From: Bacillales bacterium UBA2253
GTDB taxonomy: Bacteria > Bacillota_I > Bacilli_A > ML615J-28 > CAG-698
Length of the DNA stretch: 43,639 bases
Reading direction: 5' to 3'
Assembly: GCA_002347755.1 (NCBI GenBank)
Contig: DDXT01000071.1
Span: forward strand, 1 to 43,639
The notes under the pieces: model-generated
What the model was told of the DNA's origin: nothing
Database searches by the model: none
The model's input: only the letters and a program-made list of their open reading frames with translations
In this document: positions 11,399 to 40,763 of the stretch, one piece after another
Layout of the letters: every line of letters starts with the position of its first letter
Numbering within the stretch: position 1 is the stretch's first letter
Program-made: the position numbers and the translations under genes

Positions 11399-11401
11399 TG
11401 T

Positions 11402-12974: not shown

Positions 12975-13569
12975 GCTTTTCCATTCCTTTGATTACTATT
13001 TTTAGAAAATTGATGCTGGGTTCTTTGGCCGACTGAAGATTCTCCAAAGTCAGACCTTTTCGTAAAGTAGCCGTTTGCAGGCCTTCAATGGCATAACTGA
13101 TGTTTCTTAGCACATCCTCGCGAGAATATTCTTCCGAAAAACGGGTAAAATCGATCTCCGAAAAAAACCGGTTAACGCTTAAGGTGCGCAGTCCCGCCAC
13201 CGAACTTTGAATATCCGATTCCATACCTTTCGGGGGATTGGAAAGACCTTCCAAAAGCATTTTTGTTTCCCGGGGATGAGTCGAAGCAAACATTCCTTTC
13301 CAGAAGATGATCTCGATGATCTTCTCAAACGGATCCGTCTTTACGGGGAGGTCCGACTTCTCCAGTTCCGAAAGCAGTTTCTTGACTCCCCAGTCAATCA
13401 AATACAGATAAAGTTTTTTCTTGGAGGAAAAATACTTGAAAACCAATCCCTTGGATATTCCCGCTCTTTCGGAAATGATGTTCGTGGAGGAATTCTCATA
13501 CCCTTTTTCGCTGAATTCATTCAAAGCGGCTTGGATGATCCTCTCGGTCGTAAGTTGTTTTTTGCTCAT
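12967..13569 (-). CDS. TetR/AcrR-family transcriptional regulator
   Basis: Start chosen at ATG 13569, with GGTGA 4 nt upstream. The N-terminal TetR HTH is RIIQAALNEFSEKGYENSSTNIISERAGISKGLVFKYFSSKKKLY. The stop overlaps the ABC ATPase start. Confidence 0.85.
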   Translation of the reverse strand: MSKKQLTTERIIQAALNEFSEKGYENSSTNIISERAGISKGLVFKYFSSKKKLYLYLIDWGVKKLLSELEKSDLPVKTDPFEKIIEIIFWKGMFASTHPRETKMLLEGLSNPPKGMESDIQSSVAGLRTLSVNRFFSEIDFTRFSEEYSREDVLRNISYAIEGLQTATLRKGLTLENLQSAKEPSINFLKIVIKGMEKHE

Positions 13570-13590
13570 GATTTCACCTGCAACAAAAAT

Positions 13591-13610
13591 AAGTGACCAA
13601 GCGGTCACTT
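13591..13610. promoter_or_regulatory. Perfect palindrome AAGTGACC-AAGC-GGTCACTT: candidate TetR operator and/or terminator of the upstream phosphatase gene
   Basis: 8-bp inverted repeat 22-41 nt upstream of the TetR start codon. On the minus strand it is followed by ATTTTTGTTG and lies 47 nt downstream of the metallophosphatase stop. Confidence 0.45.
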
Positions 13611-13656
13611 ATATTATATAACTATTCCTTTGGCTGTCAAGCATAATTTCGACGGT

Positions 13657-15225: not shown

Positions 15226-15362
15226 GCCGGTCCTCCTCATCAAATATGTACCTCCTTAATGATATCACTTAAGAGGGTTATTGCCAATTATTTTTGATTT
15301 TTCTTTTTCAAAGAAAAAAGTTTTTGTTTTCCAAAAGCTTTTCAAAAATTTACATTGGTTTC

Positions 15363-17108
15363 TTAACTTCGGTTCAGGTTTTCCAAAGCCGTGAATTTTT
15401 GGTACCATTCATCGTTTTTGAGGAGCATTTCCGGGGATCCGGAATTTCTGACCCGCCCGTTTTCCAGGATGACGACCGTATCACAAGCCATCATCGAAGA
15501 CAACCGGTGGGAAATGGACAATATCGTATGCGTTTCTCCGGCTTTTTGCAAGACCGAGACGATCTTGTTTTCGGTGATCGAATCAAGATTGGCGGTAATT
15601 TCGTCAAGTAGCAGGATGGCGGGATCCGTCACGACCGCCCGCGCAATCGCCAGCAGTTGTTTTTGGCCCTGCGAGAACAAGGCTTCGCCTTTTACCGGCG
15701 TATCGAGTCCTTTTTCCAGGGAGTCAACGAATTCCAACATGCCAACGAAATCCAAGGCTTGGCGGATGCGTTCTTTGGAAATGCCTTCTTCTTGCATGCT
15801 GATCTGCTCGCCGATGGTGCCTCGGATCAACCGGAAGTTCTGATCAACATACCCGAATATCTTCCGCTTCTCGGAGTTCGGGATCAAACAAACATCAACG
15901 TCATTGATGGTGATGCTGCCTTCGAACGGCTTCAAAAGCCCCATGCATAACTTGAAGAGGGTGGTTTTTCCAACCCCGGTCCGGCCCACGAAAGTTACTT
16001 TTTCTTGCGGCTGGATGTTTAGATCAACATGGCTTAGGATCTCCGATCCCTCTTCATAATTGAAAGAAACATCGTTGAACTTTAGCGATACTTTTTGGCG
16101 GTCATGAATGATGTCCTCGGCTTTCAACTCGATCTGTTTCGGGGCTTCTTCTTCCTCATCGCAAAAGGCGTTCACTCTTTGGATCCCGGAAACGGATTGT
16201 TGAATGTTCTGCAGTTCGGTTCCGAAGTTTTCGATCGGAGCAAACAAGTCCGAGATCAGTTCGACCGAAGCCGCCACCATACCGATGGTGATGCCGATGA
16301 AGTTAAGGTCGGGAATCGCGAGCACGACGATCAAAGTGATGGCCAAAGCCCGGGTGATCTGAATGATCGGCGGAAAGATCGAATCAAAGAAATTGACTTT
16401 CTCGAGCGTGTTAAAGTTCTGCTTCAGATAACGCGTGTATTTTCTTTCCATGTAGGCTTCTTTGCTTCCGGATTTGATCATCAGCACGTTTTTCAGACTT
16501 TCGCTGATATGGTTGTTGACTTTCCCGACTTGGATCCGGTTTTGGATCTGCGCCTGCAGCGTCCGTTTCTGAACAAATCTCGTGATCAAAAAAATGATCG
16601 GGAGCAGCGCCAAGGCGATTAAGCCCAGCGTTTGATTGAACACAAAAACGGAGACGACGATGCCGATGATCTTCAGACAATCGATCAATAGTCCGATGAT
16701 GCCGGTCGTAAAAGTGGAGTTGATGGCTTCAACGTCATTGGTAAAACGCGAGACGACGTTCCCGGTCCCGTTCTTGGAGAAATAAAGGGCGTTGATTCGC
16801 TCGGCTTTTCGCATCATCGTCAGCCGGATCTCTTTGGAGACCTTTTGGCCGATGACGGTTAACAAGGCGGCCTTGAGAAAATCAAAGACCGCGATCAGTC
16901 CGACTGTGCCCAGATACAATAGCGCCAGATTCATTAATCCGTCCGGAGTTTTCGGAACCAAATTATCATCCACGATCCGCTTTAGGATCTGAGGAGGGAT
17001 CAAACTGGTAAGAACGACGCCGGCGATGACAATGGCCAGCATTAATAAAAGCAGCCAGTTCTTCTTAGAAACTCTTAGCGCTGCGCGGCTGACATGGTTA
17101 TAACGCAT
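15363..17108 (-). CDS. ABC exporter, fused permease and ATPase (heterodimer partner B)
   Basis: Six-TM N-terminal domain, Walker A GRTGVGKTT, signature FSQGQKQL, Walker B LLLDEITANLD. Start is ambiguous between ATG 17108 and GTG 17117 and overlaps the upstream partner. Confidence 0.85.
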   Translation of the reverse strand: MRYNHVSRAALRVSKKNWLLLLMLAIVIAGVVLTSLIPPQILKRIVDDNLVPKTPDGLMNLALLYLGTVGLIAVFDFLKAALLTVIGQKVSKEIRLTMMRKAERINALYFSKNGTGNVVSRFTNDVEAINSTFTTGIIGLLIDCLKIIGIVVSVFVFNQTLGLIALALLPIIFLITRFVQKRTLQAQIQNRIQVGKVNNHISESLKNVLMIKSGSKEAYMERKYTRYLKQNFNTLEKVNFFDSIFPPIIQITRALAITLIVVLAIPDLNFIGITIGMVAASVELISDLFAPIENFGTELQNIQQSVSGIQRVNAFCDEEEEAPKQIELKAEDIIHDRQKVSLKFNDVSFNYEEGSEILSHVDLNIQPQEKVTFVGRTGVGKTTLFKLCMGLLKPFEGSITINDVDVCLIPNSEKRKIFGYVDQNFRLIRGTIGEQISMQEEGISKERIRQALDFVGMLEFVDSLEKGLDTPVKGEALFSQGQKQLLAIARAVVTDPAILLLDEITANLDSITENKIVSVLQKAGETHTILSISHRLSSMMACDTVVILENGRVRNSGSPEMLLKNDEWYQKFTALENLNRS

Positions 17109-18843
17109 CGGATCCACCTTCTCCCAAGGCTTGAAGCCGATAAATGGATGAATAAAGCCGGGAACTCTTCAACAGTCCCTCATGCGTCCCGTACTCAGCC
17201 GTCTTGTCATTATCCAACAAGATGATCTGATTGGTTTTGGAAAAGACTGCCAACCGGTGCGAGATCAGAATGATCAGGCTTTCTTGATATCTGGATTTCA
17301 GATTCTTGATGATGGTCTGTTCGGTCTTCATGTCAATCGCCGAGAACGGATCGTCAAGGATGATGATCTTGGGTTTTTTCACCAAAGCGCGGGCCAAAGC
17401 GACCCGGGCTTGCTGGCCTCCGGATAAGCGGATCCCGGCGTTTCCGACCAAAGTTCCGCTTCCCTGCGGCATGTCTTTTAAATCTTCATCCAGGCAAACG
17501 TCTTTCAAGACCGGATCCAGGTCCAGTTCCTCTCCCAAAGCGATGTTTTCGTAAATGGTATCTGAAAAAAGCTGGGGCTGATGCCCAAGATAGGCGATCA
17601 TCGCGCTTCTTTCGTATTCGGAATATTCTTTTAGTTCTTTACCGTTGATCTTGATGCTTCCCGTATAGGGATACATTCCCGTCAAAGCCAACCCCAAGGT
17701 GGTTTTACCGGATGCGACCTGGCCGGTAATGCCGATGATCTCGCCTTGTTTTCCCGAGAAACTGATGTTGGAAATGACATCTTCAGCGGCCGGGTCGTAG
17801 CGCAGCGATAGACCGGAGGCTTCCAAGACCGTCTTTCCGCTTGGAAGGTCAAGCGTTTCGTCTTTGGCTACGTACTCGCCCAAATAGGGTTTGATCCGTT
17901 TCCAGGACACTTGGCTTTTTTGAACGGAATTGAACAGTTTCGAAGCCTTGCTGGCTTTTAGGGCCAAAGCGATGAACATCGTGCTGTAGGTGGAAAAGAC
18001 GCCGACGGTCCAACCACCTTCGATGGTCTTGTTTCCCCCGAGGTAAACGACGATCAAAATCCCGATCATCCCGATGGCATTGTAAATCGGCTGCATGGAG
18101 TTTTCGAGGATGTTGGCCTTGATGGCGCTGGTTTCCAAATCGTCAAGCTGCCGTTCGTATCTTTGGCGGTTCTTGGTTTCCATTCCGGTTACTCGGTACA
18201 GCATCGAATTATCGATCTGATCAAAAGTCAAATCGGCGACTTCGCCGCTTTTCTTGCGATAAGCGGAAGAGTATCGGTAAATGGTCTTTTTCAGCGCTTC
18301 AGCGAGCAGCATGGCCGCTGGCATGAACAATATCGATAGCAAGGTTATCTTGGCGTCGTAAGCAAACAAAACAATGACATATGAAACCATCAGGACCCCG
18401 GTGTCAAAGACTTCGGTCGAGAACTTTCTCATGCCTTCCACGCAGATGTCCACATCCGAAACCGCTCGGGTCATCAGATTCCCAGTGTTTTCTTTTTCCA
18501 GTTCCCCCGTGTTTTTGTGCATGATGAAATTGTAGATCATCCGTCTCATGGTCGCGATCGTCACATTGGCGAAACGGCGGATGAAGAACCGTTTAAAGTA
18601 ACGCATGAGCTGGATCCCCGCTACAAACAAAACGAAGAGCGCGGCGACTTTCAACACCGCATTCAAGGTTTCACCGGTTACGAGCGCATCGATCAGCTTT
18701 CCTTGCCAGATGGGAGAAAGAACCATGGCGCTGTTGAATGCCAACCCGAAGATGACAAACCCGGCCACGATGAATTTTTCTTTCTTCCAATAGTTGATGA
18801 TTTTATCAGGATGAACCATTGGTTCAATTAGTGCTTTTTTCAT
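17098..18843 (-). CDS. ABC exporter, fused permease and ATPase (heterodimer partner A)
   Basis: 581 aa. Walker A GQVASGKTT, signature LSGGQQARV, Walker B IILDDPFSAID. Confidence 0.85.
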   Translation of the reverse strand: MKKALIEPMVHPDKIINYWKKEKFIVAGFVIFGLAFNSAMVLSPIWQGKLIDALVTGETLNAVLKVAALFVLFVAGIQLMRYFKRFFIRRFANVTIATMRRMIYNFIMHKNTGELEKENTGNLMTRAVSDVDICVEGMRKFSTEVFDTGVLMVSYVIVLFAYDAKITLLSILFMPAAMLLAEALKKTIYRYSSAYRKKSGEVADLTFDQIDNSMLYRVTGMETKNRQRYERQLDDLETSAIKANILENSMQPIYNAIGMIGILIVVYLGGNKTIEGGWTVGVFSTYSTMFIALALKASKASKLFNSVQKSQVSWKRIKPYLGEYVAKDETLDLPSGKTVLEASGLSLRYDPAAEDVISNISFSGKQGEIIGITGQVASGKTTLGLALTGMYPYTGSIKINGKELKEYSEYERSAMIAYLGHQPQLFSDTIYENIALGEELDLDPVLKDVCLDEDLKDMPQGSGTLVGNAGIRLSGGQQARVALARALVKKPKIIILDDPFSAIDMKTEQTIIKNLKSRYQESLIILISHRLAVFSKTNQIILLDNDKTAEYGTHEGLLKSSRLYSSIYRLQALGEGGSDAL

Positions 18844-18868
18844 GCTTCGGCTCTTTCTTCTTTCGACT

Positions 18869-19303
18869 TCATGGTTGGTTTATTTCGTTCTCTTTTCGAA
18901 AATAGGAATATAAGGCGTCATACAGATGAAACTCCCTTTGCAGCGTTTCATGATCGTCTTTGGCGTTCATCCCGTAACCGCGCGCCAGTACTTCCAACGA
19001 AAAAGCCAAAGGGTTCTGATCAGCTTTCCCGGTATCCGCCATCCGGACGATTTCTTGGATCTTCTTAAGCGCCAAATCCCCGGTCAGTTTATATTTCTTC
19101 ATGATGGCATCAAAGGAGCACTCGTCCCCATGATGACCGAGTTCCACGCCTTTCATGTCAAAAGGGATCCCACCTTGGATCGTTTGGGGATCGGTATCCC
19201 GGGGAACGAAAACGAATTCGGCTTCTTTGTCAACGAAGTTCTTAATTAACCATGGACAAGCGACCCGGTCGACATGGACTTTTTCTCTGGTAACCCATTT
19301 CAT
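18869..19303 (-). CDS. ChrB-C-terminal-domain (chromate-resistance-like) protein
   Basis: 144 aa. MKWVTREKVHVDRVACPWLIKNFVDKEAEFVFV matches the conserved start of the Chrome_Resist/ChrB C-terminal domain as I recall it. GGAGGAA Shine-Dalgarno is present. Confidence 0.55.
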   Translation of the reverse strand: MKWVTREKVHVDRVACPWLIKNFVDKEAEFVFVPRDTDPQTIQGGIPFDMKGVELGHHGDECSFDAIMKKYKLTGDLALKKIQEIVRMADTGKADQNPLAFSLEVLARGYGMNAKDDHETLQREFHLYDALYSYFRKENEINQP

Positions 19304-19393
19304 ATTTCTTCCTCCGGTTATTTTGCATACTAAGATTATACTACTTTTTGCTTCGGAGATAAAGCATTATGACGCCTGGGGACTTCTGGCATC

Positions 19394-19422
19394 AAAAAAG
19401 CGGTGACGCTTTTTCACCGCTT
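19394..19422 (-). terminator. Rho-independent terminator after pmbA
   Basis: AAGCGGTGA-cgctttt-TCACCGCTT hairpin (19398-19422). On the minus strand it is followed by T6 (complement of A6 at 19394-19399), 16 nt past the pmbA stop. Confidence 0.75.
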
Positions 19423-19437
19423 TGCAAATTCGTTTTT

Positions 19438-20709
19438 TTATAAGATGTCCATTCCGGGGAGTTTAACGTATTTCGGCCCTTGGTAATTGGCCACTTTGGT
19501 CTTTTCTTTGGACAGGATGATGTTCTTCAAGCATTTATCGATGTTTCCGCTGAAAGACAGACCGCTCACCGGCATATACTCCCGGCCGTCATAATAAAGA
19601 GCCAATCTTACTTCTCCGCCGATGTAGCCGCTGTACATTTCAATTTGGATCCCTGAAAGGGCGATGATCTCCAAATGCGGTTTGCGACACATTCTGGCCA
19701 GAGTCGTGGAGCCTTTTTCGACTTCGATCGTATCCATGATCCCGGTCGGTTCCAAATTCAGGTATTGGCCGTATTGATTGCTTCCGTAATAGCTGGCCAA
19801 GATGCCGTTGGCGATGACGTCAACCGGTTTTAAGATGATTCCGTCTTTATCAAAAGCATCGGCTTTGGATGACGGAACGTAAGCGATCTTCAAAAGATCG
19901 CCTTCCGCGTCTTTTTGAATGTCATCAAAAATCTTCTTGTCCGTATTTTGCTTATAAACGCTGACATAAGAATAATCCTCGATCAGGGTTTTGAAGAATT
20001 CCTGCACGTCAAGGTCTTTCAAGACAACGTCAAGGTTGGTAACGCCCTTGATTTTTTCCGCGCCGTAACGGGCGGTGACTTCCTTTAAAGCGGTGACCGC
20101 ATCGTCTTTGATGGCTTCAAAATCAATGGTCTTATAGGTATAGTATTTGTACAACTCGACTTTTTGGCGGTCGCCGTCATAGGACGGAATGGCTTCAACA
20201 TTGACTTGGTACAAAGTTTTGGAAAGATCAACGCCTTGGGAGTTGACGACATGAGTCGTCGTTTTATTGCAAAACAGTTCCAAAGCATTGAATTTCGCCT
20301 GCTCGCTGGATTCGCTTATAAAGACATTGGCGATTTGGTCAAGCAAAGCGAAAGGCGGCCATTCGTATTCTTTTTCTTTCCAGGATTTTCTTTTTGCGCC
20401 TTTAACCAGGTTATAGGCTTTGTTCTTGATGAACTTGGAAGCAAAGACCGCTTCCGAGATCTTCTCCGCCAATTCATTCTTTCGCATTTTATGGCTGACT
20501 GCAAAAGACGAAGAGCCCAGATAATCGACGCCGTTTTCAGCGAACCGATGATAGACGGTCACCAAGTATTCGCAGGTGTTGGCGACTCTCGTTGTCTCCA
20601 GTCTTTGCAAAACATAGAAAGCCTGGCTGCTTTCGATGGCGGTTTCGCTGATCAGCCAATCGGTTACTTCAACGTTTTCTCGTAAACTTTTGATTATTTG
20701 TTTGATCAT
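19438..20709 (-). CDS. pmbA: PmbA/TldE-family metalloprotease partner
   Basis: 423 aa from ATG 20709 (GGTGA upstream). The start forms an ATGA overlap with the tldD stop. It has the size and position of a TldD paralog and lacks the HExxxH motif. Confidence 0.75.
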   Translation of the reverse strand: MIKQIIKSLRENVEVTDWLISETAIESSQAFYVLQRLETTRVANTCEYLVTVYHRFAENGVDYLGSSSFAVSHKMRKNELAEKISEAVFASKFIKNKAYNLVKGAKRKSWKEKEYEWPPFALLDQIANVFISESSEQAKFNALELFCNKTTTHVVNSQGVDLSKTLYQVNVEAIPSYDGDRQKVELYKYYTYKTIDFEAIKDDAVTALKEVTARYGAEKIKGVTNLDVVLKDLDVQEFFKTLIEDYSYVSVYKQNTDKKIFDDIQKDAEGDLLKIAYVPSSKADAFDKDGIILKPVDVIANGILASYYGSNQYGQYLNLEPTGIMDTIEVEKGSTTLARMCRKPHLEIIALSGIQIEMYSGYIGGEVRLALYYDGREYMPVSGLSFSGNIDKCLKNIILSKEKTKVANYQGPKYVKLPGMDIL

Positions 20710-22112
20710 CCGATTTTCACCTTTGCTTTCAGGCATGGGCCGCCGTCGCTGACCCGCACCGATTCTTTATATCCCTTTCCGCAGGATCCGCTGCCAACGA
20801 CGTTAAAGTCCTTGGAAACGGCGCTGATGGAATTAAGCAGATCGATGACGTATCCGCTCATGACGACCGGAGAAACGATCTTTCCGGTAAACTCGCCGTT
20901 TTTGATTTCCCGGCCATAATGCGCCGCGCACTGGATTCCCCAGTTTTTCGGGTCTTCCATGCCGTTGTTGGTCGTGGAAATGAAATATCCGTATTCAATG
21001 CTTTTGATCATGTCCTCAACTTTGGAAGTCCCGCGTTCAAAGAAGGTATTGGTCATTCGGGTATAAGTTTTGCGTTTGTATGACTCGCGGCGGCCGTTTC
21101 CGGTTGGCTCGGTTCCCAGTTGCAAAGCGCTCAGGGCATCGGAGATCCCGCTGACCAAAATGCCTTTGTCGATGATCTTGGTATCATGGGCCAAAACGCC
21201 GTCGTCATCAAAGAAATACGAAGCGACGCTGAAAGCCGCATCGGCTCCGTCATGCATGCTGACCAAAGGCGATGCCACCCGCAGGTTCATGAACTCTTTG
21301 GCTTGAGCGCGGTCGCGAACAAACATGTCCATTTCCACGCCGTGTCCGAACGCTTCGTGGGCAATCAACCCAGTGATCGACGGATCAGTAACGATGTCAT
21401 AAAATCCCGGGGTTGGCGTTACCGAATCAAGCAGTTCCAAGCCTAGTTTGGCGGTAGTCTCTAGAGATGCCTTTAAATCGGCCAATCCTTTTTCGATGGA
21501 ATTGATCCCGAATCCGTCATAAGCATAGCGAGTGTTGTTGTCTCTTCGCGTCAATACGAACGCCCGCGGATTGCTCCAGGTGTAATATTGTTCCAAATCT
21601 TTGGCTTTGGATATGAACATCTTGGAGATCTCGGTGTTTTCGATGCTGCACCGGGCATTGACGATCAGCGGTGAAGTCTTTAGCGTTTCTTCAACATAAC
21701 CTTTCAGGATCTCAATGATCTTATCGGTGGAATAAACCAACCCTTTGTTCTTTCGAACAAAGGTCTTGGTCAGAGGTTCTTCTTTCAGGACTTGGACCTT
21801 GACGTTTGATATCGATCCTTTTTCCGAAGTCAGCTGATTGATCTTTTCGATGATCTCGGGAAGATTCTTCTCTTCGATCTCGTTGGTCGAATATTCGCTG
21901 TACACGGCGTCATTGAAAACTTTGACGACAAATCCCGATTCGGTGATCCCGCTCGGAACAACGTTCGTCGAAGTCTTGTCCACCACGATGTTCACTCCGG
22001 ACACATCGGTAGCCAAGACGCTCACATACGAATATTTCTCGCCAAGCAAATCGATCAGTTTTTGGATAATCGGTTTTTTGCCTTTTAAATATTTAGAAAA
22101 TTTGCCTGTCAT
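20706..22112 (-). CDS. tldD: TldD-family metalloprotease
   Basis: 468 aa from ATG 22112 (GGAGG 6 nt upstream). Contains the HEAFGHGVEMD zinc-binding motif characteristic of TldD. Confidence 0.85.
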   Translation of the reverse strand: MTGKFSKYLKGKKPIIQKLIDLLGEKYSYVSVLATDVSGVNIVVDKTSTNVVPSGITESGFVVKVFNDAVYSEYSTNEIEEKNLPEIIEKINQLTSEKGSISNVKVQVLKEEPLTKTFVRKNKGLVYSTDKIIEILKGYVEETLKTSPLIVNARCSIENTEISKMFISKAKDLEQYYTWSNPRAFVLTRRDNNTRYAYDGFGINSIEKGLADLKASLETTAKLGLELLDSVTPTPGFYDIVTDPSITGLIAHEAFGHGVEMDMFVRDRAQAKEFMNLRVASPLVSMHDGADAAFSVASYFFDDDGVLAHDTKIIDKGILVSGISDALSALQLGTEPTGNGRRESYKRKTYTRMTNTFFERGTSKVEDMIKSIEYGYFISTTNNGMEDPKNWGIQCAAHYGREIKNGEFTGKIVSPVVMSGYVIDLLNSISAVSKDFNVVGSGSCGKGYKESVRVSDGGPCLKAKVKIG

Positions 22113-22179
22113 TATTTTTCCTCCATGGCAATACTTTACCATAAATCGGGGTTTCATTCAAGGAATAATCAAAAATAGC

Positions 22180-22213
22180 CTAAAAAAAGAAAAACCCGAA
22201 TCTTTTCGGGTTT
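22180..22213 (-). terminator. Rho-independent terminator after the adenine deaminase gene
   Basis: AAACCCGAA-tctt-TTCGGGTTT (22192-22213). On the minus strand it is followed by TTCTTTTTTT. Confidence 0.75.
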
Positions 22214-22244
22214 ATTGGCCTCAGTTTTTTTGATCAAATAATGA

Positions 22245-23975
22245 TCATAGAAACTTTTGGGACATGACATCAAAGATTCCTCGGGTGGTGATGCGAAGCG
22301 TCGGGATCACCGGCAAACTTAAGAAGGATAAAGTCATGAGCGGATCAATGCCTTTGGATACTCCCAAGGCATAAGCTTGTTCTTTGACGTTTTCCAACTC
22401 TTTGTTAACAATCTGAAGCGGCCGATTGCTCATTAAGCCGGCGATCTCCAGGGCTACTTCGCCTAAGACCTTCCCGGCGTTCACGACGACCATTCCCCCG
22501 TTGTTGGAAATGATGCGATCGACGGCGGTCTTCATGTCTTCGTCATGGCAACCCACCACGATGATGTTGTGCGAATCATGAGAAACGCTGGTAGCAATCG
22601 CTCCTTGTTTCAATCCGTAACCAGTAACAAAACCTAAGCCGATGTGATGGGTGGCTTTATGTCTTTCAATGACCGCGATCTTTAAAATGCCCTTTGTCAC
22701 ATCAACATTGTTAGCCAGACCGCAGTTTTTGGTGACGATCTCGTTATTGATCAGGCCGATGACGCCGGCCGGTTTCTTTAAGATGAAATCCGCTTTGGTG
22801 ATCTTTCCGACATGAAAAGTGTGTAAAGCCTTCTCGGTCAAAACCGGATCAATGATCGGATTGTCAAATTCCAGGGTCTTTCCGTCAAAAACCAGTTTGC
22901 CTTTTTTGAAGACTTTTTCGATGTTGAAATCTTTAAGGCTGCCTATTACCACCAGGTCGGCCAAATAACCGGGAGCAATGGCGCCTTTGTTATTTAACAA
23001 AAAATACCGGGCCGCATGATAACTGGCGGCTTTAAGGGCAATGATGGGATCGACTCCGTTTTTAAGAGCTTCTTTGATGATGAAATCAATGTGCCCGCCA
23101 TTAAGCAGATCCCCCGGATGTTTGTCATCGGTGGCAAACATGCACCGGGAATTATAACGTTCGCTAAGCAGCGGCAAAAGAGCTTTTAAGTTGTGAGCGG
23201 CGGTTCCTTCCCGGATCATGATGGACTGCCCTTTTTGCAATTTTTCCAAAGCATTTTCAAAAGTGGAACATTCATGATCGGAATAAACGCCGGCGGTAAT
23301 GTAAGCGTTCAGGTCTTTTCCGGACAGATCCGGAGCATGACCGTCGATTTTCTTGTGATGGCCTTGGGAAGCCAGAATTTTGGAAACATCGTTGGCATCC
23401 TGATTGATGACGCCAACAAAGTCCATCATCTCGGCCAACCCCAGGACTTTCGGATTGTCATAAAACCGGTCGATGGCTTTGAAATCCAGGACCGCCCCGC
23501 TTTCGTCCAGCGGCGTCGCCGGCACACAGGAAGGAAGCATGAAATGGACATCGATCGGAAGTCCTTCGGTAGCTTGCAGCATGTACTCGATGCCGTCGGT
23601 TCCCATGACATTGGCGATCTCATGCGGATCGGTTATGACCGTCGTCGTCCCATGGGGAACAACGGCTTTCGCGAATTCCTTGGGACTGACCAGCGAACTT
23701 TCCAAATGAATGTGCGAATCAATGAATCCGGGAACAACCAGTTTCCCCTCAAGGTCAATCTCGACCTTTCCGGAATAGTCCCCCATTCCCACGATCAAAC
23801 CGTCTGATACCGCAATGTCCGCCCGAATGAACTCATTGGAAAAGACATTCAGGTAGTTGGCGTTTTTCAGCACCAAATCAGCGATTTCATCGCCTTTCGC
23901 AATCCGGATGGCTTTTTGTTTTTTCTCGATTTTTCGCCCGACACGCTCTTCGATAGTCTCGTTTTCTTTGCTCAT
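22245..23975 (-). CDS. ade: Adenine deaminase
   Basis: 576 aa from ATG 23975 (GGGTGA upstream). Amidohydrolase motif VVPGFIDSHIHLESS, and overall length and layout matching AdeC/Ade enzymes. Confidence 0.85.
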   Translation of the reverse strand: MSKENETIEERVGRKIEKKQKAIRIAKGDEIADLVLKNANYLNVFSNEFIRADIAVSDGLIVGMGDYSGKVEIDLEGKLVVPGFIDSHIHLESSLVSPKEFAKAVVPHGTTTVITDPHEIANVMGTDGIEYMLQATEGLPIDVHFMLPSCVPATPLDESGAVLDFKAIDRFYDNPKVLGLAEMMDFVGVINQDANDVSKILASQGHHKKIDGHAPDLSGKDLNAYITAGVYSDHECSTFENALEKLQKGQSIMIREGTAAHNLKALLPLLSERYNSRCMFATDDKHPGDLLNGGHIDFIIKEALKNGVDPIIALKAASYHAARYFLLNNKGAIAPGYLADLVVIGSLKDFNIEKVFKKGKLVFDGKTLEFDNPIIDPVLTEKALHTFHVGKITKADFILKKPAGVIGLINNEIVTKNCGLANNVDVTKGILKIAVIERHKATHHIGLGFVTGYGLKQGAIATSVSHDSHNIIVVGCHDEDMKTAVDRIISNNGGMVVVNAGKVLGEVALEIAGLMSNRPLQIVNKELENVKEQAYALGVSKGIDPLMTLSFLSLPVIPTLRITTRGIFDVMSQKFL

Positions 23976-24014
23976 GATCGATTCACCCTTATCATATTTC
24001 ATTTTATTACCCAT

Positions 24015-33913: not shown

Positions 33914-36100
33914 TTATTTTCTCCGTCTAAATACAACTATATGCTCATTTGTCATTGTGGATACTTTCAAGCCTGGTTCGTTAGTTGGTGAATTTAATGA
34001 AGGCATAATCTTTTTACTTATATTTCTATTTATTTTATAAATTTCTTCTAGATTTTGGGCTTTTCCAAATTCGGAAATTATTTTATCCGTCATTAATAAT
34101 TCCCCTTTTACTGTTCTATTGCCAATTACCCAAAACTGATACCCACCTATTTTCGTCTTTTTAACAATTTCTTTTATTGATGAATATAGTTCATTGTAAA
34201 AGCTATAGACATCCCCCGCTCTTTCTAAATCAATGTCTTTAATAATTGATAGGGAATTCTTTAGTGTTTCGCTTGGAAGAAGATATTCAAAACCATTTCT
34301 ATATTTCTTTCCTCCCATTAACGACTTATCAATCCCCATAATTTCCTTTTCAGTCAAATTAAACAAACCCAGCCATTGTAGGGATAATCTGCTATACTCG
34401 CCATAAGCTACCGTTGTTCTGCTATCGCCATATGGTGGTGAAGTAATAACCAAATCAAAAGTTTCATCATTAATATCTATTAAGTCTGTGGCGTTATCGC
34501 TAAATATTTTGATTAATGACTGGGAACCTGACTCATTGCAAACTTCATTAAAACTATTCATCTTTTCCATGTTTCTTTTTGTTATTTTGGCGAATTCATC
34601 GGCAACATTCGGGTTAAAAATCGCAACTTTTCTTGCTGGCATCCTGAACATTTTAAATTCGCCATTTCTTCTGTTTGAAACCAACCTGATGGTTTCACTG
34701 AGGCAAACAAAAAAGAATTTTCTCATATCTTCATCGTCAATAAGTTCATTGATGGAATTCTTTATTTCTTGAAGCATAATAATAACTTTTGGTTTAAACC
34801 AATATCCAATATTTTTAAAATCCGGTATTATTAACGAAATATTATTGTTTTTACAATATTTTTGTAGGTATTTGGGTGCTTCTTCTCCCCATGGTTTCTT
34901 TGCGGTTAAATCTAGTCCTTCACTATTTGATAAAAAGTCATTTACATTTTCAATTGCTCGAAGATTCGTTTGGTAAAAAGAATCGATTCTCTTGAACAAG
35001 TTCTTGGCTTTTTCCTGCAAATTTGAAATTTCAATATTTGTCGTTTTTACTCTTTCAAGTAATAGGGCCAATGGGTTTATGTCATTTCCAACTACAAAAT
35101 TTATCCCCGCTATTTTTCCTTCAACTAAGACCGTTCCCGAACCTGCAAAGGGATCAAACAAAGAATTTATTGGCCTCGTTTCTTTCATAATTTTAATTAT
35201 ATTCCTACTAATGGGGCACACCATTACAGCAGGATAGTTATGTAGCCCATGTGTATATTCTTGAGTATCATCATTTTTGAAGTCCCAATAACCTTCAGAA
35301 AGAGATTCTAGCCTATCAATTAAACCAATGTCATTCAAATTAACCGTTTCATTCATTTTCTTCATTTCTTTTTGTTCTCCAAACAATTGTAAACCAACAT
35401 TTCTTGTTTTAATTTCAACTGTACAAATTGTGTCGTTATGCCACCCGCCATGTGGAACCATTAAAATCCTTTTTATCTCAAAGCCATATTTATTGCCTAT
35501 TCCTCCGCTATTCCATCCAAACGTGACAACTTTTCCACCAACTTTTACAATTCTTGATATTTCACGCTTGTGATTCCCCCAAAATGATGCTTTTGTTGTG
35601 TCCCATGTGACATTATAACCCACATCATTATAGCATTCACTTACTTGTCTTGGAGAATAGGGAGGGTCGTACAATACACCATCAATTGAATAATCATCAA
35701 ACATTTTAAAAAAATCTAAAGCATCCACATGATAATCTGTATTAAATCCCGCGTTTAAGTCGTTTGTTATGGTGGCAAGTTTGTTCTTGTTTGCAAAGGG
35801 ATCAATCCATGTTCCATCAGTTAACTCTTCCTCAATCAACTGAGCAATGGGTTTAATATCAAAGGTGTTTTTATTTGGCATTGCCCAAGAGCGCTCAATG
35901 ATTAGGTTTGTGTTTTTTGAAGGTTGCTCATAAATGGTTTTCTTTCTTGCGTCTTCCGGCTTTCCGAGGTTTTCCGGGATTGTCCAAACGTTTCCCACTC
36001 TTTGTGCCCCAGCAAGTCGTCCCTGGTTACACAATACTTGTACTCTTCTTGGAGATATGTCCCAAATTTCTGCTACCTGTTTTATGCTTAAATATTTCAT
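33914..36100 (-). CDS. DNA methyltransferase fusion: N-terminal HTH, a DPPY MTase module and an SPPY (N4-C/N6-A type) MTase module
   Basis: 728 aa from ATG 36100 (GGTGA upstream). HTH is LSIKQVAEIWDISPRRVQVLCNQGRLAGAQRVGNVWTIPE. Module 1 has WIDPFA ... GVLYDPPYS. Module 2 has LFDPFAGSGTVLVEG ... DLVITSPPYGD. Confidence 0.8.
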   Translation of the reverse strand: MKYLSIKQVAEIWDISPRRVQVLCNQGRLAGAQRVGNVWTIPENLGKPEDARKKTIYEQPSKNTNLIIERSWAMPNKNTFDIKPIAQLIEEELTDGTWIDPFANKNKLATITNDLNAGFNTDYHVDALDFFKMFDDYSIDGVLYDPPYSPRQVSECYNDVGYNVTWDTTKASFWGNHKREISRIVKVGGKVVTFGWNSGGIGNKYGFEIKRILMVPHGGWHNDTICTVEIKTRNVGLQLFGEQKEMKKMNETVNLNDIGLIDRLESLSEGYWDFKNDDTQEYTHGLHNYPAVMVCPISRNIIKIMKETRPINSLFDPFAGSGTVLVEGKIAGINFVVGNDINPLALLLERVKTTNIEISNLQEKAKNLFKRIDSFYQTNLRAIENVNDFLSNSEGLDLTAKKPWGEEAPKYLQKYCKNNNISLIIPDFKNIGYWFKPKVIIMLQEIKNSINELIDDEDMRKFFFVCLSETIRLVSNRRNGEFKMFRMPARKVAIFNPNVADEFAKITKRNMEKMNSFNEVCNESGSQSLIKIFSDNATDLIDINDETFDLVITSPPYGDSRTTVAYGEYSRLSLQWLGLFNLTEKEIMGIDKSLMGGKKYRNGFEYLLPSETLKNSLSIIKDIDLERAGDVYSFYNELYSSIKEIVKKTKIGGYQFWVIGNRTVKGELLMTDKIISEFGKAQNLEEIYKINRNISKKIMPSLNSPTNEPGLKVSTMTNEHIVVFRRRK

Positions 36101-36328
36101 TTTTTTCACCAATATGATTGTATTCCGGAATGCGAATAATTGCAAGGACTTTTGTGCTGTTTTTTATTTTAAAATTGACTTTTAGAAGACAATTTCCGAG
36201 CCTTCAAAAAAGTGGATAGGTAGACTATTTTTGGATTTTCTCAAAAAAAGAAATTTGGTTTCTTTTTCAGTCACACTTTTCGCACACGGAAATACATGGT
36301 ATAATGACAACTCGAAAGAAGGGAAAAA

Positions 36329-36745
36329 ATGGCAAATATTTCTGATTTGATTCTGCTTATCAATTATCCAAACTCCAGCATCACAGGGACAAGCATTGCT
36401 GTCCAAAACCAAAACTATAATACTAAAAATGCAAGAATCAATTATCCATCATCCTATAAAGTTAATGCAAGAAGAAAAACCCCAATATCGGATTTTTTCT
36501 TCTTTTCGGGATTTCACACATTTTGGTATTTATGCATTTGTCGATAATAATGATGAAATTTTATATTTTGGCAAAGCAAGAAAAGAAACAGTAAAGGAAA
36601 GAATAACGGATCATTATTAAAAAAGGGTCAAAGACTTTATTGAACACAAAAGAATTATTTGTTCGATACCGTTTTGCCAAGAAAACAAATTGATTATGAT
36701 GAAGCTCTTTTTATTGGGGTATTCCGGCAAATTTATAATTTTTGA
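36329..36745 (+). pseudogene. Decayed GIY-YIG nuclease-domain gene
   Basis: An extended -10 (TGGTATAAT near 36297-36305) and a GAAGGGA Shine-Dalgarno precede ATG 36329. The GIY-YIG motif (FGIYAFVDNNDEILYFGKA) lies in a different frame (36396-36620), which then hits TAA. A third frame carries a plausible C-terminal piece (DYDEALFIGVFRQIYNF). Confidence 0.4.
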
Positions 36746-36788
36746 AGTATAATCAACAATATTTGACGAACATATTAAAAAAAAGCTT

Positions 36789-37004
36789 TTATTCAAAACT
36801 TCTTTTAGAGGCTAACAAATACTTAAGGTTGCTGATGTCATAATTTCCATTTTCTTCTGATATGTGCGATAGTGATTTCCCTCTTAAAATATTGCCCTCA
36901 CACATCTTTAGTTTGTCTTCATGTGTCAATTTCATATAAAAAAGACTCATTTGTTTTAGGTTAGGTACCATTATAATGCCCTCTCTCCAACCTTTTGAAG
37001 TCAT
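36789..37004 (-). mobile_element. IS3-family (IS150-like) orfA 5' remnant
   Basis: MKLTHEDKLKMCEGNILRGKSLSHISEENGNYDISNLKYLL resembles the N-terminal HTH of IS3/IS150 OrfA proteins. It diverges and stops after about 48 codons, and no orfB follows. Confidence 0.5.
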
Positions 37005-37149
37005 TTCATTCTTATGTGTGTAAGAGCCACCATTTTAATACAATTTGTATCCCTTCCAAAAGTTCGTTCCCCCCCTGTATAAAAAAGGAGATACTTAACG
37101 TACCCCAAAAATATGAATTCATTGAGTATCATTCAATACTATTTTCAGG

Positions 37150-37602
37150 TTATTTAACTAATAAATCCTCAGCTATTACATGTAATTTCTCATCCACCGT
37201 TTTATCCGTTAATTTCAAACTTTTTAGTCCCTTTGTCCCTAGATGACATAAAGCCTTAATAAAAGAAATTCCCGCTTCATTAAGAACACATTCAGCATCT
37301 TTGCCAAAAGAAAAAACAATTTTTATTTTAAAGAGAGAATCCTTAATTCTATCAATATTTTCAGGTGATTTAATGTCCCAAATATAAGAAGTTGTTCTCT
37401 TATCGTCAGAATTAAGATATCCTTCGTAATAAACATTTTCACTAGAATTATCTATGTGGTATCCCTTTTTACAAACTGAAGTGAATATATCAGGAGGCGA
37501 TTCATGAAATATAGAAATCAATTGAATGTAATTATCCCCCGTTTTTCCCGATAAAAACTCACCCGTTTTTTTCCTTGTTGACCAGGACAAGAAAAGACAC
37601 AA
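37150..37602 (-). CDS. Hypothetical ORF with no ATG anywhere in frame, possibly a 5'-truncated gene
   Basis: A 150-codon open frame whose only start candidate is TTG. It has no internal Met, no Shine-Dalgarno and no recognised family. Confidence 0.25.
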   Translation of the reverse strand: MCLFLSWSTRKKTGEFLSGKTGDNYIQLISIFHESPPDIFTSVCKKGYHIDNSSENVYYEGYLNSDDKRTTSYIWDIKSPENIDRIKDSLFKIKIVFSFGKDAECVLNEAGISFIKALCHLGTKGLKSLKLTDKTVDEKLHVIAEDLLVK

Positions 37603-37607
37603 GCAAC

Positions 37608-37709
37608 TTAAACATCATTGGATGGGGCTTTTGCTTTCACTGTAGCTCTTGTTTTACCTTCAGACATTACCCCTTCTTTAGTTTTTTTTTTCTTTTTTTC
37701 TAAACCCAT
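37608..37709 (-). CDS. Possible 33-aa Lys-rich mini-ORF (weak call)
   Basis: ATG 37709 gives MGLEKKKKKTKEGVMSEGKTRATVKAKAPSNDV, ending at TAA 37608-37610. It begins with A7 and A10 homopolymers (T runs at 37693-37699 and 37682-37691 on the plus strand). Confidence 0.2.
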   Translation of the reverse strand: MGLEKKKKKTKEGVMSEGKTRATVKAKAPSNDV

Positions 37710-37916
37710 ATTAAAACCTCACACTTTGTTGATAAAATATTCTGATCATTGACAATAATTCATACACCTATAATTCACTTAGTGATTTTTTCTCGTTTGC
37801 TCGGTGAACAATAAATTCAAAGAATGATTATTTAACTTATACTGTGTATAAATATTTAGCTTATTCGCCTTCATATTCTTCAAAATCATATGGTAAGTCA
37901 TAATAATCACAATACC

Positions 37917-38387
37917 TTAGTAAATCATCTTGACTTCTTTTTGCATAGCATTGAATATTTGAATTAATTCATCATTAACTGATTTCATTTTCTTTACCAA
38001 ATCTTGTAAACGAGGAACGTACTGTTTTGGATTATCTTGAAATTCTTTTGACACTAAATCATCCTTAAATATATGGTGTACGAAGTAGTTTCGCTCTCCA
38101 CGCACATGATCAATCTCTTTAATAAACTCATCATTGAAGATTTCTTTATTTTTTATTTCTTCAAGTTGTTTACCTAATTCCTTTTTACTAAGCCATTCAT
38201 ACCACCTTTCAGTTTTATTTGAAAGTTCGCTATATTCAAATGAATACATGGAATCCTGCTTATCAAATGCAGAAAGTATCTCATTTAGAGCAAGAATATT
38301 TGCAAGGTTATACTCAACCATTTGAGATAGATTTACAACAAATCCAACGCTAACCCATACCTTTGTATAATAACGCTTCTTAAACAT
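37917..38387 (-). CDS. HEPN-motif protein (paralog 2)
   Basis: Start taken at ATG 38387 (GGAGAA 7 nt upstream). The R-x4-H motif ERNYFVHH is encoded at 38073-38096, preceded by ELGKQLEEIK. About 156 aa, predicted all-helical by composition. Confidence 0.6.
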   Translation of the reverse strand: MFKKRYYTKVWVSVGFVVNLSQMVEYNLANILALNEILSAFDKQDSMYSFEYSELSNKTERWYEWLSKKELGKQLEEIKNKEIFNDEFIKEIDHVRGERNYFVHHIFKDDLVSKEFQDNPKQYVPRLQDLVKKMKSVNDELIQIFNAMQKEVKMIY

Positions 38388-38478
38388 ACACTTGTTCTCC
38401 ATTTAAATAAAACAATTCAATAAGATTCTATGCCTTAAAGAAATTTTCAATTGAATCAAATGTTTCTTGAATTCTACT

Positions 38479-39351
38479 TCATACTTTACTTCCAGTAAAT
38501 ACCAAAACTTGCCATCCATCGTTGACTCCAATAGTACGTTTCACAGAATCATTTTTTCTGTCTGGCTTTGCCTCATGATAATCATGACCATCAAGTTCAA
38601 TTAAAATCATTTTTTGTTTTTTAAAGTTTATTAGCCCAAAATCATATCTAACATTAACAGGAGTTCTACCGTCTTTAAAGTCAGAATAATAAATGTTAGA
38701 TTTATCTTTATAGCAATAGAACTGAATCTTTGATCCGCAAACCTCTGGCATCAAAGCAGGATTGTTCCTGTTGGAGAAATAATCGTTAAGCCATTTTTTA
38801 TAAAATTGTTCTTATATCGGACTTTTTGATAATAGTTGTAATGTGTCTGGCAAAGATTTTCCATACTTTGACTTAAGGATAGTTTCTACATGCTCAATTG
38901 TCCAGGGCTTATATGGTAAGGAGCTTAATTCCTCTTGAGAAATTTGATCAGTAACACGTTCTTGTACTCCAAATGTGACATCAAAGTATTCATTTCCTAC
39001 CCATTTATGGCCGAAACTAACTCTTTTAGTTAGCGGCGACTTGCTTCGTGCGATTCTCTTCGCAACGGTTTCCTTTAGTTTCTTTTCAATCCTAGACATA
39101 ACAATAGCTTTGGCATCATCTGTTTCCATCCATTTTTCTATATCTTCAATTGGAAAAACCATTACTCCATTCTCATTTCTCTCCGATCCATACAAACCTT
39201 TCTTATGCCTTTCCATCATCCGGTCATAATAATCCTCAAAAATTTGTTCGGCACACCATATTTGCTCTTTACGTATTTTATTATCAATAAATGTTCCAAC
39301 ATCACCATTTAAATGTCCTTGTTGGCTTTTATCAAAATCTTTAAATTCCAT
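38479..39351 (-). pseudogene. Unknown N-terminal domain fused to a DUF559/Vsr-like PD-(D/E)xK nuclease domain, split by one in-frame TAA
   Basis: The 179-aa ORF (38812-39351) and the 91-aa ORF (38479-38754) share one frame. The only stop between them is TAA 38812-38814, and the frame then reads through EQFYKKWLNDYFSNRNNPALM. The C-terminal RYDFGLINFKKQKMILIELDGHDYHE...NDGWQVLVFTG matches the DUF559/Vsr-like signature. The second ORF has no convincing Shine-Dalgarno. Confidence 0.55.
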
Positions 39352-39363
39352 ATCCTTCCCTCA

Positions 39364-39783
39364 TTATCTTTTCATTTTTATCTTTAGTTTTTCTACAGTT
39401 TCAAATACATTTTTAAGTTTATCGTGATCCCTTTCAAGCTTACTACAGATTCTAGCATAATCCTGAGAATATATCCAGTTATCAGTATATAAGAAATCAC
39501 GATAGCATTGGTGGCACCAGTAATTTCTCTTTTCTGTCATTTGACTTAAGAAATTATAATCTGATGAACTTATTGAAGGATTTCCATCTGAATTATCCAG
39601 TTCCTTTAACTTCCTAACTATCTGACCTAGAGTATGTTTATTTAAACTTTCTCTAGTTTCATCTACGTTACCTGTATGCATGAAGGAATAGATCCATTTT
39701 AGATCGCCTTCAATAATCTGACAGTACATAACTATTTCGCTATGAAGAATTTTATACTGTTCATAACTCAGACTATTCATCAT
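39364..39783 (-). CDS. HEPN-motif protein (paralog 1)
   Basis: AGGAGG sits directly upstream of ATG ATG at 39783/39780. The R-x4-H motif EKRNYWCHQ is encoded near 39511-39528, preceded by TLGQIVRKLKE. About 139 aa. Confidence 0.6.
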   Translation of the reverse strand: MMNSLSYEQYKILHSEIVMYCQIIEGDLKWIYSFMHTGNVDETRESLNKHTLGQIVRKLKELDNSDGNPSISSSDYNFLSQMTEKRNYWCHQCYRDFLYTDNWIYSQDYARICSKLERDHDKLKNVFETVEKLKIKMKR

Positions 39784-39974
39784 CTTCCTCCTCATCATCT
39801 AATTCAACTGGTAACCCATAATAATCAAATAGGGCAAGATATGAAGCATATCTGTTTGCTTCTTTCTTTGAAGTAGCATAAGCTGTTTGTTTTATTGCCA
39901 AACTTTTAACAACACAAGTGCATTCCCACTGTGTTGACGTTTTTTTGCTAGAGAAAATTTTAATGAACCTACAC

Positions 39975-40193
39975 CTATAAAATATTATTGATTACTGAAT
40001 TTCTATTATCAATTGCGCTCATTTTAAATTTGGATACGATTCTTGTGGTATTGTAATACGTGATGTATTCATTGATGGCAGCTAGCAGTTGGTCTCCATT
40101 TTGAAACTCATGCTCATGTTCATACCGCATTTCCACTTTCATTCTGCCAAAGATTATTTTGTCAACAAAAGATACCTCAGTACACTCAAACAT
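39975..40193 (-). mobile_element. IS3-family transposase (orfB) 3' remnant
   Basis: FGRMKVEMRYEHEHEFQNGDQLLAAINEYITYYNTTRIVSKFKMSAIDNR matches the conserved extreme C-terminus of IS3 integrase-core proteins (ESFFGxLKxE...YIxYYNxxR). There is no catalytic core upstream. Confidence 0.6.
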
Positions 40194-40241
40194 TACAAGT
40201 TATATTTTTCCAAGTTAAATACGATTATTAGATTACCAAAT

Positions 40242-40763
40242 TTAGGAAATCTTTTTTTGAAACTTTTCTCTAATAAAATAAACAATTATTGATATGATAT
40301 TAAAGCTTTCGGTTAAAATCCCCCCAATTGAAAAGACCAAGATATTATTGGTAATCCATAACGGTGAAACTGCCAATACTTGAATAACCCTAAACTTGGT
40401 TGGATTATTGGTCCATATCGCATAGGTGCTAATAAACGAAGCCAAAATTACAAAGATGATCATCCATTTCGGGGAAGCATAAAAATAAGCGATTACCCCT
40501 CCCATTGCATACATCAATTGCATTGAAATGAACGTAAGAAGCTTGGTCTTGATTTTATCAATTGAAAAAATGATGCTTCTTAAAATTGATATCCCATTCA
40601 TGATTGCGGAAGCAATCGAACCAATTAGGATAAAGGAAATCGTGAAACATAAACAACTAAAAATTTGTAACATCATTACGGTATTCATTTTTTTAAATTG
40701 GTAAGATAAGACCGTGACTATTAAACCGACAATACCTAGTATTTGTCCTATTAACTCTGGCAT
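40242..40763 (-). CDS. YgjV-like inner membrane protein
   Basis: 173 aa, about five TM helices. The N-terminus IGQILGIVGLIVTVLSYQFKKMNTVMMLQ resembles the YgjV family. Confidence 0.5.
   Translation of the reverse strand: MPELIGQILGIVGLIVTVLSYQFKKMNTVMMLQIFSCLCFTISFILIGSIASAIMNGISILRSIIFSIDKIKTKLLTFISMQLMYAMGGVIAYFYASPKWMIIFVILASFISTYAIWTNNPTKFRVIQVLAVSPLWITNNILVFSIGGILTESFNIISIIVYFIREKFQKKIS

Follow-up and report, generated by a model that had tools for sequence, protein, structure and literature searches.

Two small HEPN-like genes around a nuclease pseudogene: a probable patch of defence-island decay in Bacillales bacterium UBA2253

At positions 37917-39798 of contig DDXT01000071.1 from Bacillales bacterium UBA2253 (GenBank assembly GCA_002347755.1), three closely packed genes lie on the minus strand. 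We refer to the whole stretch analysed, 43,639 nucleotides (nt) of this contig, as the window. The outer two genes, HEPN-144 and HEPN-161, encode small proteins with a HEPN motif, and the middle one is related to nuclease genes. From the sequence alone, the three had been proposed to form an uncharacterised defence or abortive-infection cassette. The close packing on one strand was borne out, with the nuclease gene starting 12 nt past the HEPN-144 stop; the claimed gap of about 90 nt between the nuclease gene and HEPN-161 was not, since the true end of the middle gene leaves 25-40 nt. We suggest instead that the locus is probably a decaying, recombined defence-island patch and no three-gene system, in which two solo HEPN genes remain functional-looking.

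To see whether the trio recurs, we assembled a set of loci, cited by L numbers: 24 from genomes, carrying HEPN-144 relatives, 52 from metagenomes, carrying HEPN-161 relatives, and others from viral contigs and from look-ups of exact proteins. The 92 loci counted below are those matching a merged HEPN profile. A nuclease stood beside a HEPN relative at none of the 92 HEPN loci, the window apart, and a HEPN relative beside a nuclease homolog at none of the nine nuclease loci. Absence of the trio elsewhere had been set beforehand as the outcome speaking against a cassette, and this is what we found; the HEPN-nuclease-HEPN cassette of the original prediction fails on this lack of co-occurrence, on the insertion of the nuclease gene and on its two stop codons. 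The arrangement thus reads as an accident of insertion and decay, not as a defence system. What did stand is that no named defence system matches: PADLOC and NCBIfam gave no meaningful match, nor did PHROGs, and PADLOC-DB v2 returned weak partial matches alone (E 0.003-0.006), to Cas10b and Csx1/Csm6 models. Two sets of further candidates were rejected. Neighbours of the nuclease homologs were considered as HEPN-like and dismissed on inspection of the nuclease loci, and genes downstream of HEPN-144 homologs, considered as cryptic HEPN paralogs, had no motif or hidden Markov model (HMM) match save in L005 and L006. Two intact HEPN paralogs occur in the window and in L005/L006 alone among the 92 loci.

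For the middle gene, the reading frame from 39351 runs for 179 codons to a TAA (38812-38814), for a further 110 codons to a TGA (38479-38481) and for 16 more to a TAG (38428-38430); past the TGA, up to this TAG, the translation reads SRIQETFDSIENFFKA. Full-length nuclease homologs have 302-316 amino acids (seven clusters), and both stop positions are aligned with sense codons there, the residue opposite the TGA being Y, S, H or Q. The in-frame TAA that had been noticed earlier is therefore present, but the TGA, taken then as the end of the gene, is a second in-frame stop and the true end is the TAG. Four metagenome assemblies (JGI 3300002821 and 3300002498; ENA ERZ27315059 and ERZ27315036) agree over the locus with 100% identity, and both stops are found in all four, so they are no read errors. 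Stop-codon reassignment was rejected, with two different stops involved and neither at a position with one conserved residue in the homologs. We regard the nuclease gene as now dead, a pseudogene with two nonsense codons. Its inactivation is recent, because the ratio of nonsynonymous to synonymous substitution rates (dN/dS) against its closest relative, L001, is 0.09.

The assignment of the middle gene to the Vsr/DUF559-type PD-(D/E)xK nucleases was supported: the signature DF...ELDGHDYH...DS.KR is invariant in 8/8 homologs, and so are D237, E252-L-D254-G, H259 and K271 in the nuclease alignment. The Pfam scores are sub-threshold. The window fragment matched MTES_1575 (PF18741) at E 2e-4, with 21.7 bits against a cutoff of 38.2, and DUF559 (PF04480) at E 0.018, with 15.4 bits against 20.6; PF18741 is recorded for five of the seven nuclease homologs, flagged weak. 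In a Foldseek search of the nuclease model against the PDB, the matches lean to PD-(D/E)xK nucleases, all at E > 0.05 and none significant. The C-terminal ~100 amino acids share the D...ELDG..H...K pattern with the Vsr-like restriction endonuclease (REase) domains of MTES_1575/DUF559. Unlike these, the middle gene has a distinct N-terminal region of ~200 amino acids –which, as originally stated, could not be placed in any family–, seven homolog clusters and a pseudogene as its window copy.

DNA homology to L001 (73% identity) spans 39361..38438 and no more, and the open reading frame (ORF) with its ribosome-binding site (RBS) stands where relatives have a short HEPN-HEPN spacer of 16-19 nt. 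Because the homology is confined to the ORF and the HEPN genes are directly adjacent in relatives, we interpret the nuclease gene as an ORF-plus-RBS insertion that replaced this spacer. As a side observation, intact nuclease homologs are accompanied by small XRE-type helix-turn-helix (HTH) genes (L001 5627-6924; L002 926-2525; L094 717-2700), and in L002 the stop of the HTH gene lies 4 nt ahead of the nuclease gene. This neighbour hints at a controller or antitoxin-like regulator of a rare nuclease family.

The right-hand part of the locus retains traces of a fourth gene. The window at 39929..39363 matches L005 7855-8421 with 90.5% DNA identity, and that L005 segment consists of the last 40-50 codons of a gene encoding a 278-amino-acid RNase III-domain protein (Pfam Ribonuclease_3, E 4e-19) and the whole of HEPN-144. 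The RNase III remnant in the window is 82% identical to L005 over 40 amino acids (tblastn) and overlaps the HEPN-144 start by 11 nt, likewise in the intact relatives L005/L006; the homology stops abruptly at 39929, 46 nt from an IS3 remnant. In L005/L006 an intact RNase III-like gene is followed by HEPN-144 (88% amino acid identity) and, 16 nt downstream, by a HEPN-161-family gene (174 amino acids, motif VYRNYLAH, A2 HMM 1.4e-19). The order in L033 is RNase III-like gene, 87-nt 3' remnant of HEPN-144 and HEPN-161; a 1-nt deletion there (445-1017, P0103) joins the last HEPN-144 codons to the HEPN-161 start and yields the N-terminal extension MKDNSGVEKN of the deposited 166-amino-acid protein. 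These two arrangements indicate that the order RNase III-like gene, HEPN-144, HEPN-161 is the older one. In L029 and L085, too, an RNase III-like gene is paired with HEPN-144, at 35-45% identity. Moreover, the RNase III-like gene of a viral contig (L084 4001-8588), which shares 73% identity with its L005 counterpart, stands next to two serine recombinases, and HEPN genes are lacking there; the RNase III paralog is thus mobile cargo that can travel separately.

Directly past the HEPN-161 stop lies a decayed RNase III-like tail (RYCDYYDLPYDFEEYEGE*), and then ~15-20 degenerate codons resembling the HEPN-144 start. The tail peptide gave tblastn matches at E 0.005-0.05 in the loci gathered here. 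A repeat scan of 36000-40500 found short repeats of which D2 alone was informative: it relates the copy at 37800-37917 to 39795-39827, a direct repeat of 33 nt with 79% identity. With this decayed copy, the HEPN-144/nuclease/HEPN-161 block is flanked by imperfect direct repeats, which could be the scar of a duplication or a Campbell-type insertion, and are suggestive only.

Thus, the history that we propose would begin with an ancestral unit of an RNase III-like gene, HEPN-144 and HEPN-161, joined by overlaps or very short spacers. The RNase III-like gene would have been trimmed to its last ~50 codons next to the IS3 remnant, and a free-standing Vsr/MTES_1575-type endonuclease gene would have landed exactly in the HEPN-HEPN spacer and later gained two nonsense mutations. 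The features are collected in Table 1.

Table 1. Genes, remnants and scars at the locus, in window coordinates
Feature	Position	Strand	Evidence
RNase III-like 3' remnant (last ~50 codons and stop)	39773..39929	-	L005 DNA match
HEPN-144, intact, 139 amino acids, solo minimal HEPN-like	39364..39783	-	E25, K29, R86, N87, W89, H91 invariant in relatives
Pseudogene of a ~305-amino-acid Vsr/MTES_1575-like PD-(D/E)xK endonuclease	38428..39351	-	TAA and TGA in frame
HEPN-161, intact, 156 amino acids, solo minimal HEPN-like	37917..38387	-	E25, R99, N100, H104 conserved
Probable second scar: decayed RNase III-like tail and HEPN-144-start-like codons	37800..37917	-	Repeat D2, tblastn, DNA alignment
IS3-family transposase C-terminal remnant (rve_2)	39975..40193	-	Pfam E 6e-11

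The HEPN-144 ORF (39798..39364) carries the motif EKRNYWCHQ, and its true start is likely the ATG at 39783, because AGGAGG precedes it and relatives begin at the methionines of MMNSLSY. The HEPN-161 ORF (38402..37917) carries the motif ERNYFVHH and likely starts at its second ATG, 38387, behind GGAG. About 90 homolog clusters are listed for each outer protein, none of them named. Across 39 HEPN-144-family and 34 HEPN-161-family members, R-N-x3-H is invariant or nearly so, and conserved alongside it are a first-helix Q-x-x-E and an LG. HEPN-161 relatives keep E25 and N100 without exception, and R99 and H104 almost without exception; the six invariant positions of HEPN-144 are given in Table 1. 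That the outer genes are distant paralogs was confirmed by hhalign of the two families (probability 89.9%, E 1.7e-6) and by reciprocal HMM searches of the ORFs in the collected loci, in which either family detects the other at 1e-5 to 1e-7. In their joint alignment Q22, E25, G53, N87 and H91 are invariant at ~20% overall identity. HEPN-144 has a dN/dS of 0.24 against an 88%-identical ortholog and is under purifying selection. The two small HEPN genes are the sole parts of the locus that still look functional.

An Rx4-6H motif, usually with a polar residue after the R, is the hallmark of the HEPN superfamily (Pfam clan CL0291), whose fold is an all-alpha up-down bundle in which the motif closes helix 3 and precedes the last helix (PMC3710099). 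Both proteins carry such a motif, RNYWCH in HEPN-144 and RNYFVH in HEPN-161. HEPN-144, the one protein of the two that was modelled, is all-alpha in its AlphaFold2 model (predicted local distance difference test score 92.9), with helices at 7-35, 40-46, 52-63, 73-91 and 107-138; the motif (86-91) ends helix 73-91, and this position at the end of the penultimate long helix agrees with the placement in the HEPN survey (PMC3710099). Among 34 + 80 relatives, the recurrent Pfam matches of a named functional superfamily are all HEPN-clan (Swt1-like, RiboL-PSP-HEPN, Cthe_2314 and DUF4145), the best being RiboL-PSP-HEPN at 1.9e-6, roughly at threshold by extrapolation; the remaining recurrent matches are weak, to uncharacterised DUF or coiled-coil models. 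Because of the motif, its position in the helix and these sub-threshold matches, with no confirmation from Foldseek, we consider HEPN membership of the small proteins likely, though undemonstrated.

With the merged profile and clustering at 50% identity, the family comprises 699 clusters at E <= 1e-3; at E <= 1e-10 the number is 290. By these searches it is an unnamed family that lies, at significance, outside Pfam, NCBIfam, PHROGs and PADLOC. Its main hosts are Bacillota and Mycoplasmatota from the gut and from anaerobic digesters. Nearly all members are solo proteins of 130-160 amino acids; fusions, for instance with an XRE HTH domain, are few. A co-directional gene lies within 60 nt upstream at 62/78 loci and downstream at 11/78. 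At these 78 loci the upstream genes belong to at least 16 unrelated families and no downstream gene recurs. The upstream families include RNase III-like proteins, large surface proteins, T5orf172 with DUF4177, KilA-N, a zinc-ribbon coiled-coil protein, serine recombinases, a Y-family polymerase and DUF3800. This solo, terminal and partner-variable occurrence argues for an autonomous accessory gene and against a fixed multi-gene system. The setting is often mobile, with large serine recombinases adjacent at ~15 loci, and tyrosine integrases; the IMG/VR viral contigs L085-L089 carry family members, and some members lie within phage morphogenesis regions, between HNH and terminase genes.

Several neighbourhoods of the family are worth recording. 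A string of three genes recurs, made of a ~650-amino-acid XRE-HTH protein, a ~265-amino-acid protein of no known family and a small HEPN gene, the latter of the HEPN-161 family at L048, L050, L057, L058, L060, L061, L072 and L075 and of the HEPN-144 family at L025. The XRE-HTH protein has a C-terminal RYRNSIVH motif of its own, with a weak RiboL-PSP-HEPN match, and a serine recombinase gene often overlaps the end of the string. Since the string is found with both small-HEPN families, it may be a real conserved module. The L075 copy (1969-2456) is another decayed one, with a frameshift that splits the HEPN-161-family gene into ORFs of 80 and 82 amino acids.

A prophage-like region (L097, at ~2509-5432, L100, L101 and L102) holds a HEPN-144 homolog present on more than 50 contigs (P0077), ~1.3 kb downstream of the gene for an RtcB RNA ligase, and such prophages carry tyrosine integrases. 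RtcB mends 2',3'-cyclic-phosphate ends, such as HEPN RNases produce, and the two genes could be an RNA damage-and-repair pairing. Besides, at L095 (5179-10408) a HEPN-144 homolog with 68% identity starts 4 nt past the gene of a 1605-amino-acid Druantia/DISARM-type helicase (DEAD/MZB, DUF1998), and the same island holds a type I HsdR.

Several results weigh against reading the two genes as active HEPN proteins spread by mobile elements. Canonical HEPN domains are described with their conserved acidic residue in helix 2, but here it is located in the first long helix. The direct Pfam matches, to HEPN_Swt1 (E 0.11) and HEPN_Cthe2314 (E 0.002; HEPN-161), are both under the gathering score. Foldseek of the HEPN-144 model against the PDB and BFVD retrieved no HEPN structure (best E 0.4-0.6), and the family profiles (A1, A2, A5) searched against PDB sequences at E <= 10 retrieved no HEPN chain, only coiled-coil noise. 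Neither HEPN protein was found in 50,697 phage genomes (tblastn), near-identical DNA was absent from plasmid and phage records, and promoter-like sites in the window are not significantly commoner than in shuffled sequence. As the family is absent from cultured phage genomes, its prophage link stands on metagenomic contigs. The small proteins might then be no defence nucleases at all, and form a toxin-antitoxin-like paralog pair or act as helical phage accessory or regulatory proteins; the missing structural match to HEPN, the missing curated family match over threshold and the members inside phage morphogenesis regions (HNH/terminase) would fit. We hold this to be quite unlikely. Paired paralogs occur in two lineages of the 92 loci, so a mutual toxin-antitoxin relation cannot be general. 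Moreover, R, N, H and the helix-1 E are strictly kept across paralogs that are ~20% identical, which is typical of a catalytic site, and the weak Pfam matches converge on HEPN families.

The other explanations concern how the genes belong together. One system of HEPN-144, the Vsr-like nuclease and HEPN-161, in which the HEPN proteins sense or regulate and the nuclease is the DNA effector of defence or abortive infection, is suggested by the common strand, the very short spacers and the defence-island surroundings, and has a precedent for HEPN with a Vsr-type REase, since the MTES_1575 REase domain was first defined in a HEPN-fused protein (PMC3710099). This model is already largely refuted and highly improbable: besides the missing trio at the 92 HEPN and nine nuclease loci, relatives have the HEPN genes directly next to each other, the block of nuclease homology is exactly as long as the ORF, the two nonsense codons are fixed in 4/4 assemblies and nuclease homologs adjoin XRE-type HTH genes instead. 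The middle gene could also have been a selfish, free-standing endonuclease of the homing type that inserted itself into the spacer and then decayed, which is compatible with the history preferred here. Such an origin would explain the clean replacement of the 16-19-nt spacer by an ORF with its RBS and the patchy, rare occurrence in seven homolog clusters; homing genes usually decay once fixed, and Vsr-like PD-(D/E)xK homing enzymes are known, I-Bth0305I being among the weak fold matches. We nevertheless regard it as unlikely, with no empty-site/filled-site pair at high identity, homologs that lie by HTH regulators in islands near integrases or toxin-antitoxin genes and not in conserved phage genes, and fold matches that are all non-significant. 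A somewhat better case, still doubtful, can be made for the ancestral RNase III-like gene, HEPN-144 and HEPN-161 as the true, cooperating system, of which the window would be a disabled copy: RNase III with its double-stranded RNA-binding domain (dsRBD) would detect double-stranded RNA and a HEPN hetero-oligomer would cleave, the window HEPN proteins being non-functional or toxic leftovers. The set is intact in L005/L006, with an 11-nt overlap and a 16-nt spacer; the linkage is kept at 35-45% identity (L029, L085), and traces persist in L033 and the window. Single-protein HEPN-RNase III-dsRBD fusions, or 'two-headed RNases', are also documented (PMC3710099). Set against this, an RNase III-like neighbour is found at ~5 of ~30 HEPN-144 loci and 1 of ~55 HEPN-161 loci, paired intact HEPN genes are confined to the window and L005/L006, and the RNase III-like gene of L084 has no HEPN gene. 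In L033 and the window parts were lost singly with the other ORFs intact, which argues for separable units. For the same reading taken further we see only a limited chance: the RNase III-like gene with tandem HEPN genes (L005/L006) would be an undescribed prophage-borne multi-RNase immune cassette and the ~700-cluster family a new clade of solo effectors. There, sensing or processing of double-stranded RNA from phages would fall to the RNase III paralog, a HEPN-144/HEPN-161 hetero-oligomer would cleave RNA, and the small HEPN family would be swapped among prophage operons as a 3'-terminal module.

The surroundings of the locus are those of a defence island, as had been claimed. An MvaI/BcnI restriction endonuclease (REase) with a fused methyltransferase lies 1.8 kb from the trio and a KAP NTPase 5.2 kb from it, within an AT-rich island from ~27 to 41 kb (~30% GC against a backbone of ~39% GC). 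One IS3 remnant (39975-40193) is confirmed near the right-hand end of the island in the GC profile; the IS3 remnant claimed for the far side had no Pfam hit. An Rfam scan of 36000-40500, covering RNA antitoxins and regulatory RNAs, gave no RNA family, and a 150-amino-acid ORF downstream (37150-37602) had no match in Pfam, PADLOC, PHROGs or NCBIfam. A 74-amino-acid ORF at 36396-36620 on the plus strand, with a weak match to the N-terminus of a GIY-YIG nuclease (E 0.003), is probably another gene fragment of the island. Elsewhere in the window, 5000-24000 is a block of 44-54% GC against flanks of ~39%, a compositionally distinct second foreign island beside the AT-rich one, which includes a minus-strand ORF of 1700 amino acids (4827-9929) and a series of genes on that strand.

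For annotation, the locus is a caution that close same-strand packing in a defence island is no proof of a system: the packing here stems from the insertion of a gene and an IS-associated truncation, and one member of the trio is dead. Should the small proteins prove to be active solo HEPN RNases, a sizeable unnamed family (~700 clusters) would join the partner-less abortive-infection effectors HepS and Tha. The repeated association with a mobile RNase III paralog is a lead on double-stranded RNA sensing; it may reflect cooperation on double-stranded RNA, as a minority arrangement whose parts are lost independently. Thus, the family and the intact RNase III/two-HEPN cassette of L005 are better experimental targets than the window.

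By analogy with known solo HEPN proteins, the small proteins most likely function as self-contained, oligomeric RNases of abortive infection, in the manner of HepS or Tha. Since these act in such a way, we propose that the proteins would oligomerise so that the R-N-x3-H motifs of two protomers form a metal-independent RNase site, that the oligomer would be auto-inhibited until a phage cue opens it, and that the opened enzyme would cleave tRNA or bulk RNA and so abort the infection.

HepS is a partner-less HEPN protein of the Gifsy-1 prophage of Salmonella with the residues R100/N101/H105, an auto-inhibited tetramer that a tail-tip protein opens and that has anticodon nuclease activity (PMC13043305). 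Like it, the small HEPN proteins are single-domain and have R-N-x3-H at about residue 100 (R99/N100/H104 in HEPN-161), and both are prophage or mobile-island cargo with no conserved partner or inhibitor gene. HepS belongs to Enterobacteriaceae, whereas the small family is found in metagenome-assembled genomes of Bacillota and Mycoplasmatota. PDB searches gave no sequence or fold match, and the LT2 Gifsy-1 record was without HepS. Tha-1, along with Tha-2, is a tail-activated HEPN anti-phage protein of Staphylococcus aureus prophages (PMC11087260). Tha resembles the small proteins as a prophage HEPN RNase with RNxxxH that is an effector of abortive infection and needs no sensor gene of its own; it has 301 amino acids, with an N-terminal region of ~180, and a cognate inhibitor, Ith (PMC11087260), whereas the window proteins are bare domains of ~140-155 amino acids and no conserved inhibitor gene was seen in the loci.

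HepT of the type VII toxin-antitoxin system HepT-MntA is likewise a minimal HEPN protein of similar size, with Rx4-6H, and a dimeric RNase toxin; unlike in that system, no nucleotidyltransferase was noted by the window genes or among the annotated partner families, and there was no DUF86 match. Finally, the two-headed RNases and the Swt1/Abi2-clade HEPN proteins (PMC3710099) bear comparison. The ancestral cassette likewise pairs RNase III/dsRBD with HEPN, in separate, translationally coupled genes instead of one protein and with the linkage kept in a minority of loci, and the best weak Pfam matches of the small family are Swt1-like, RiboL-PSP and Cthe_2314. On these comparisons, the small HEPN proteins are best filed as uncharacterised additions to the known solo HEPN effectors.

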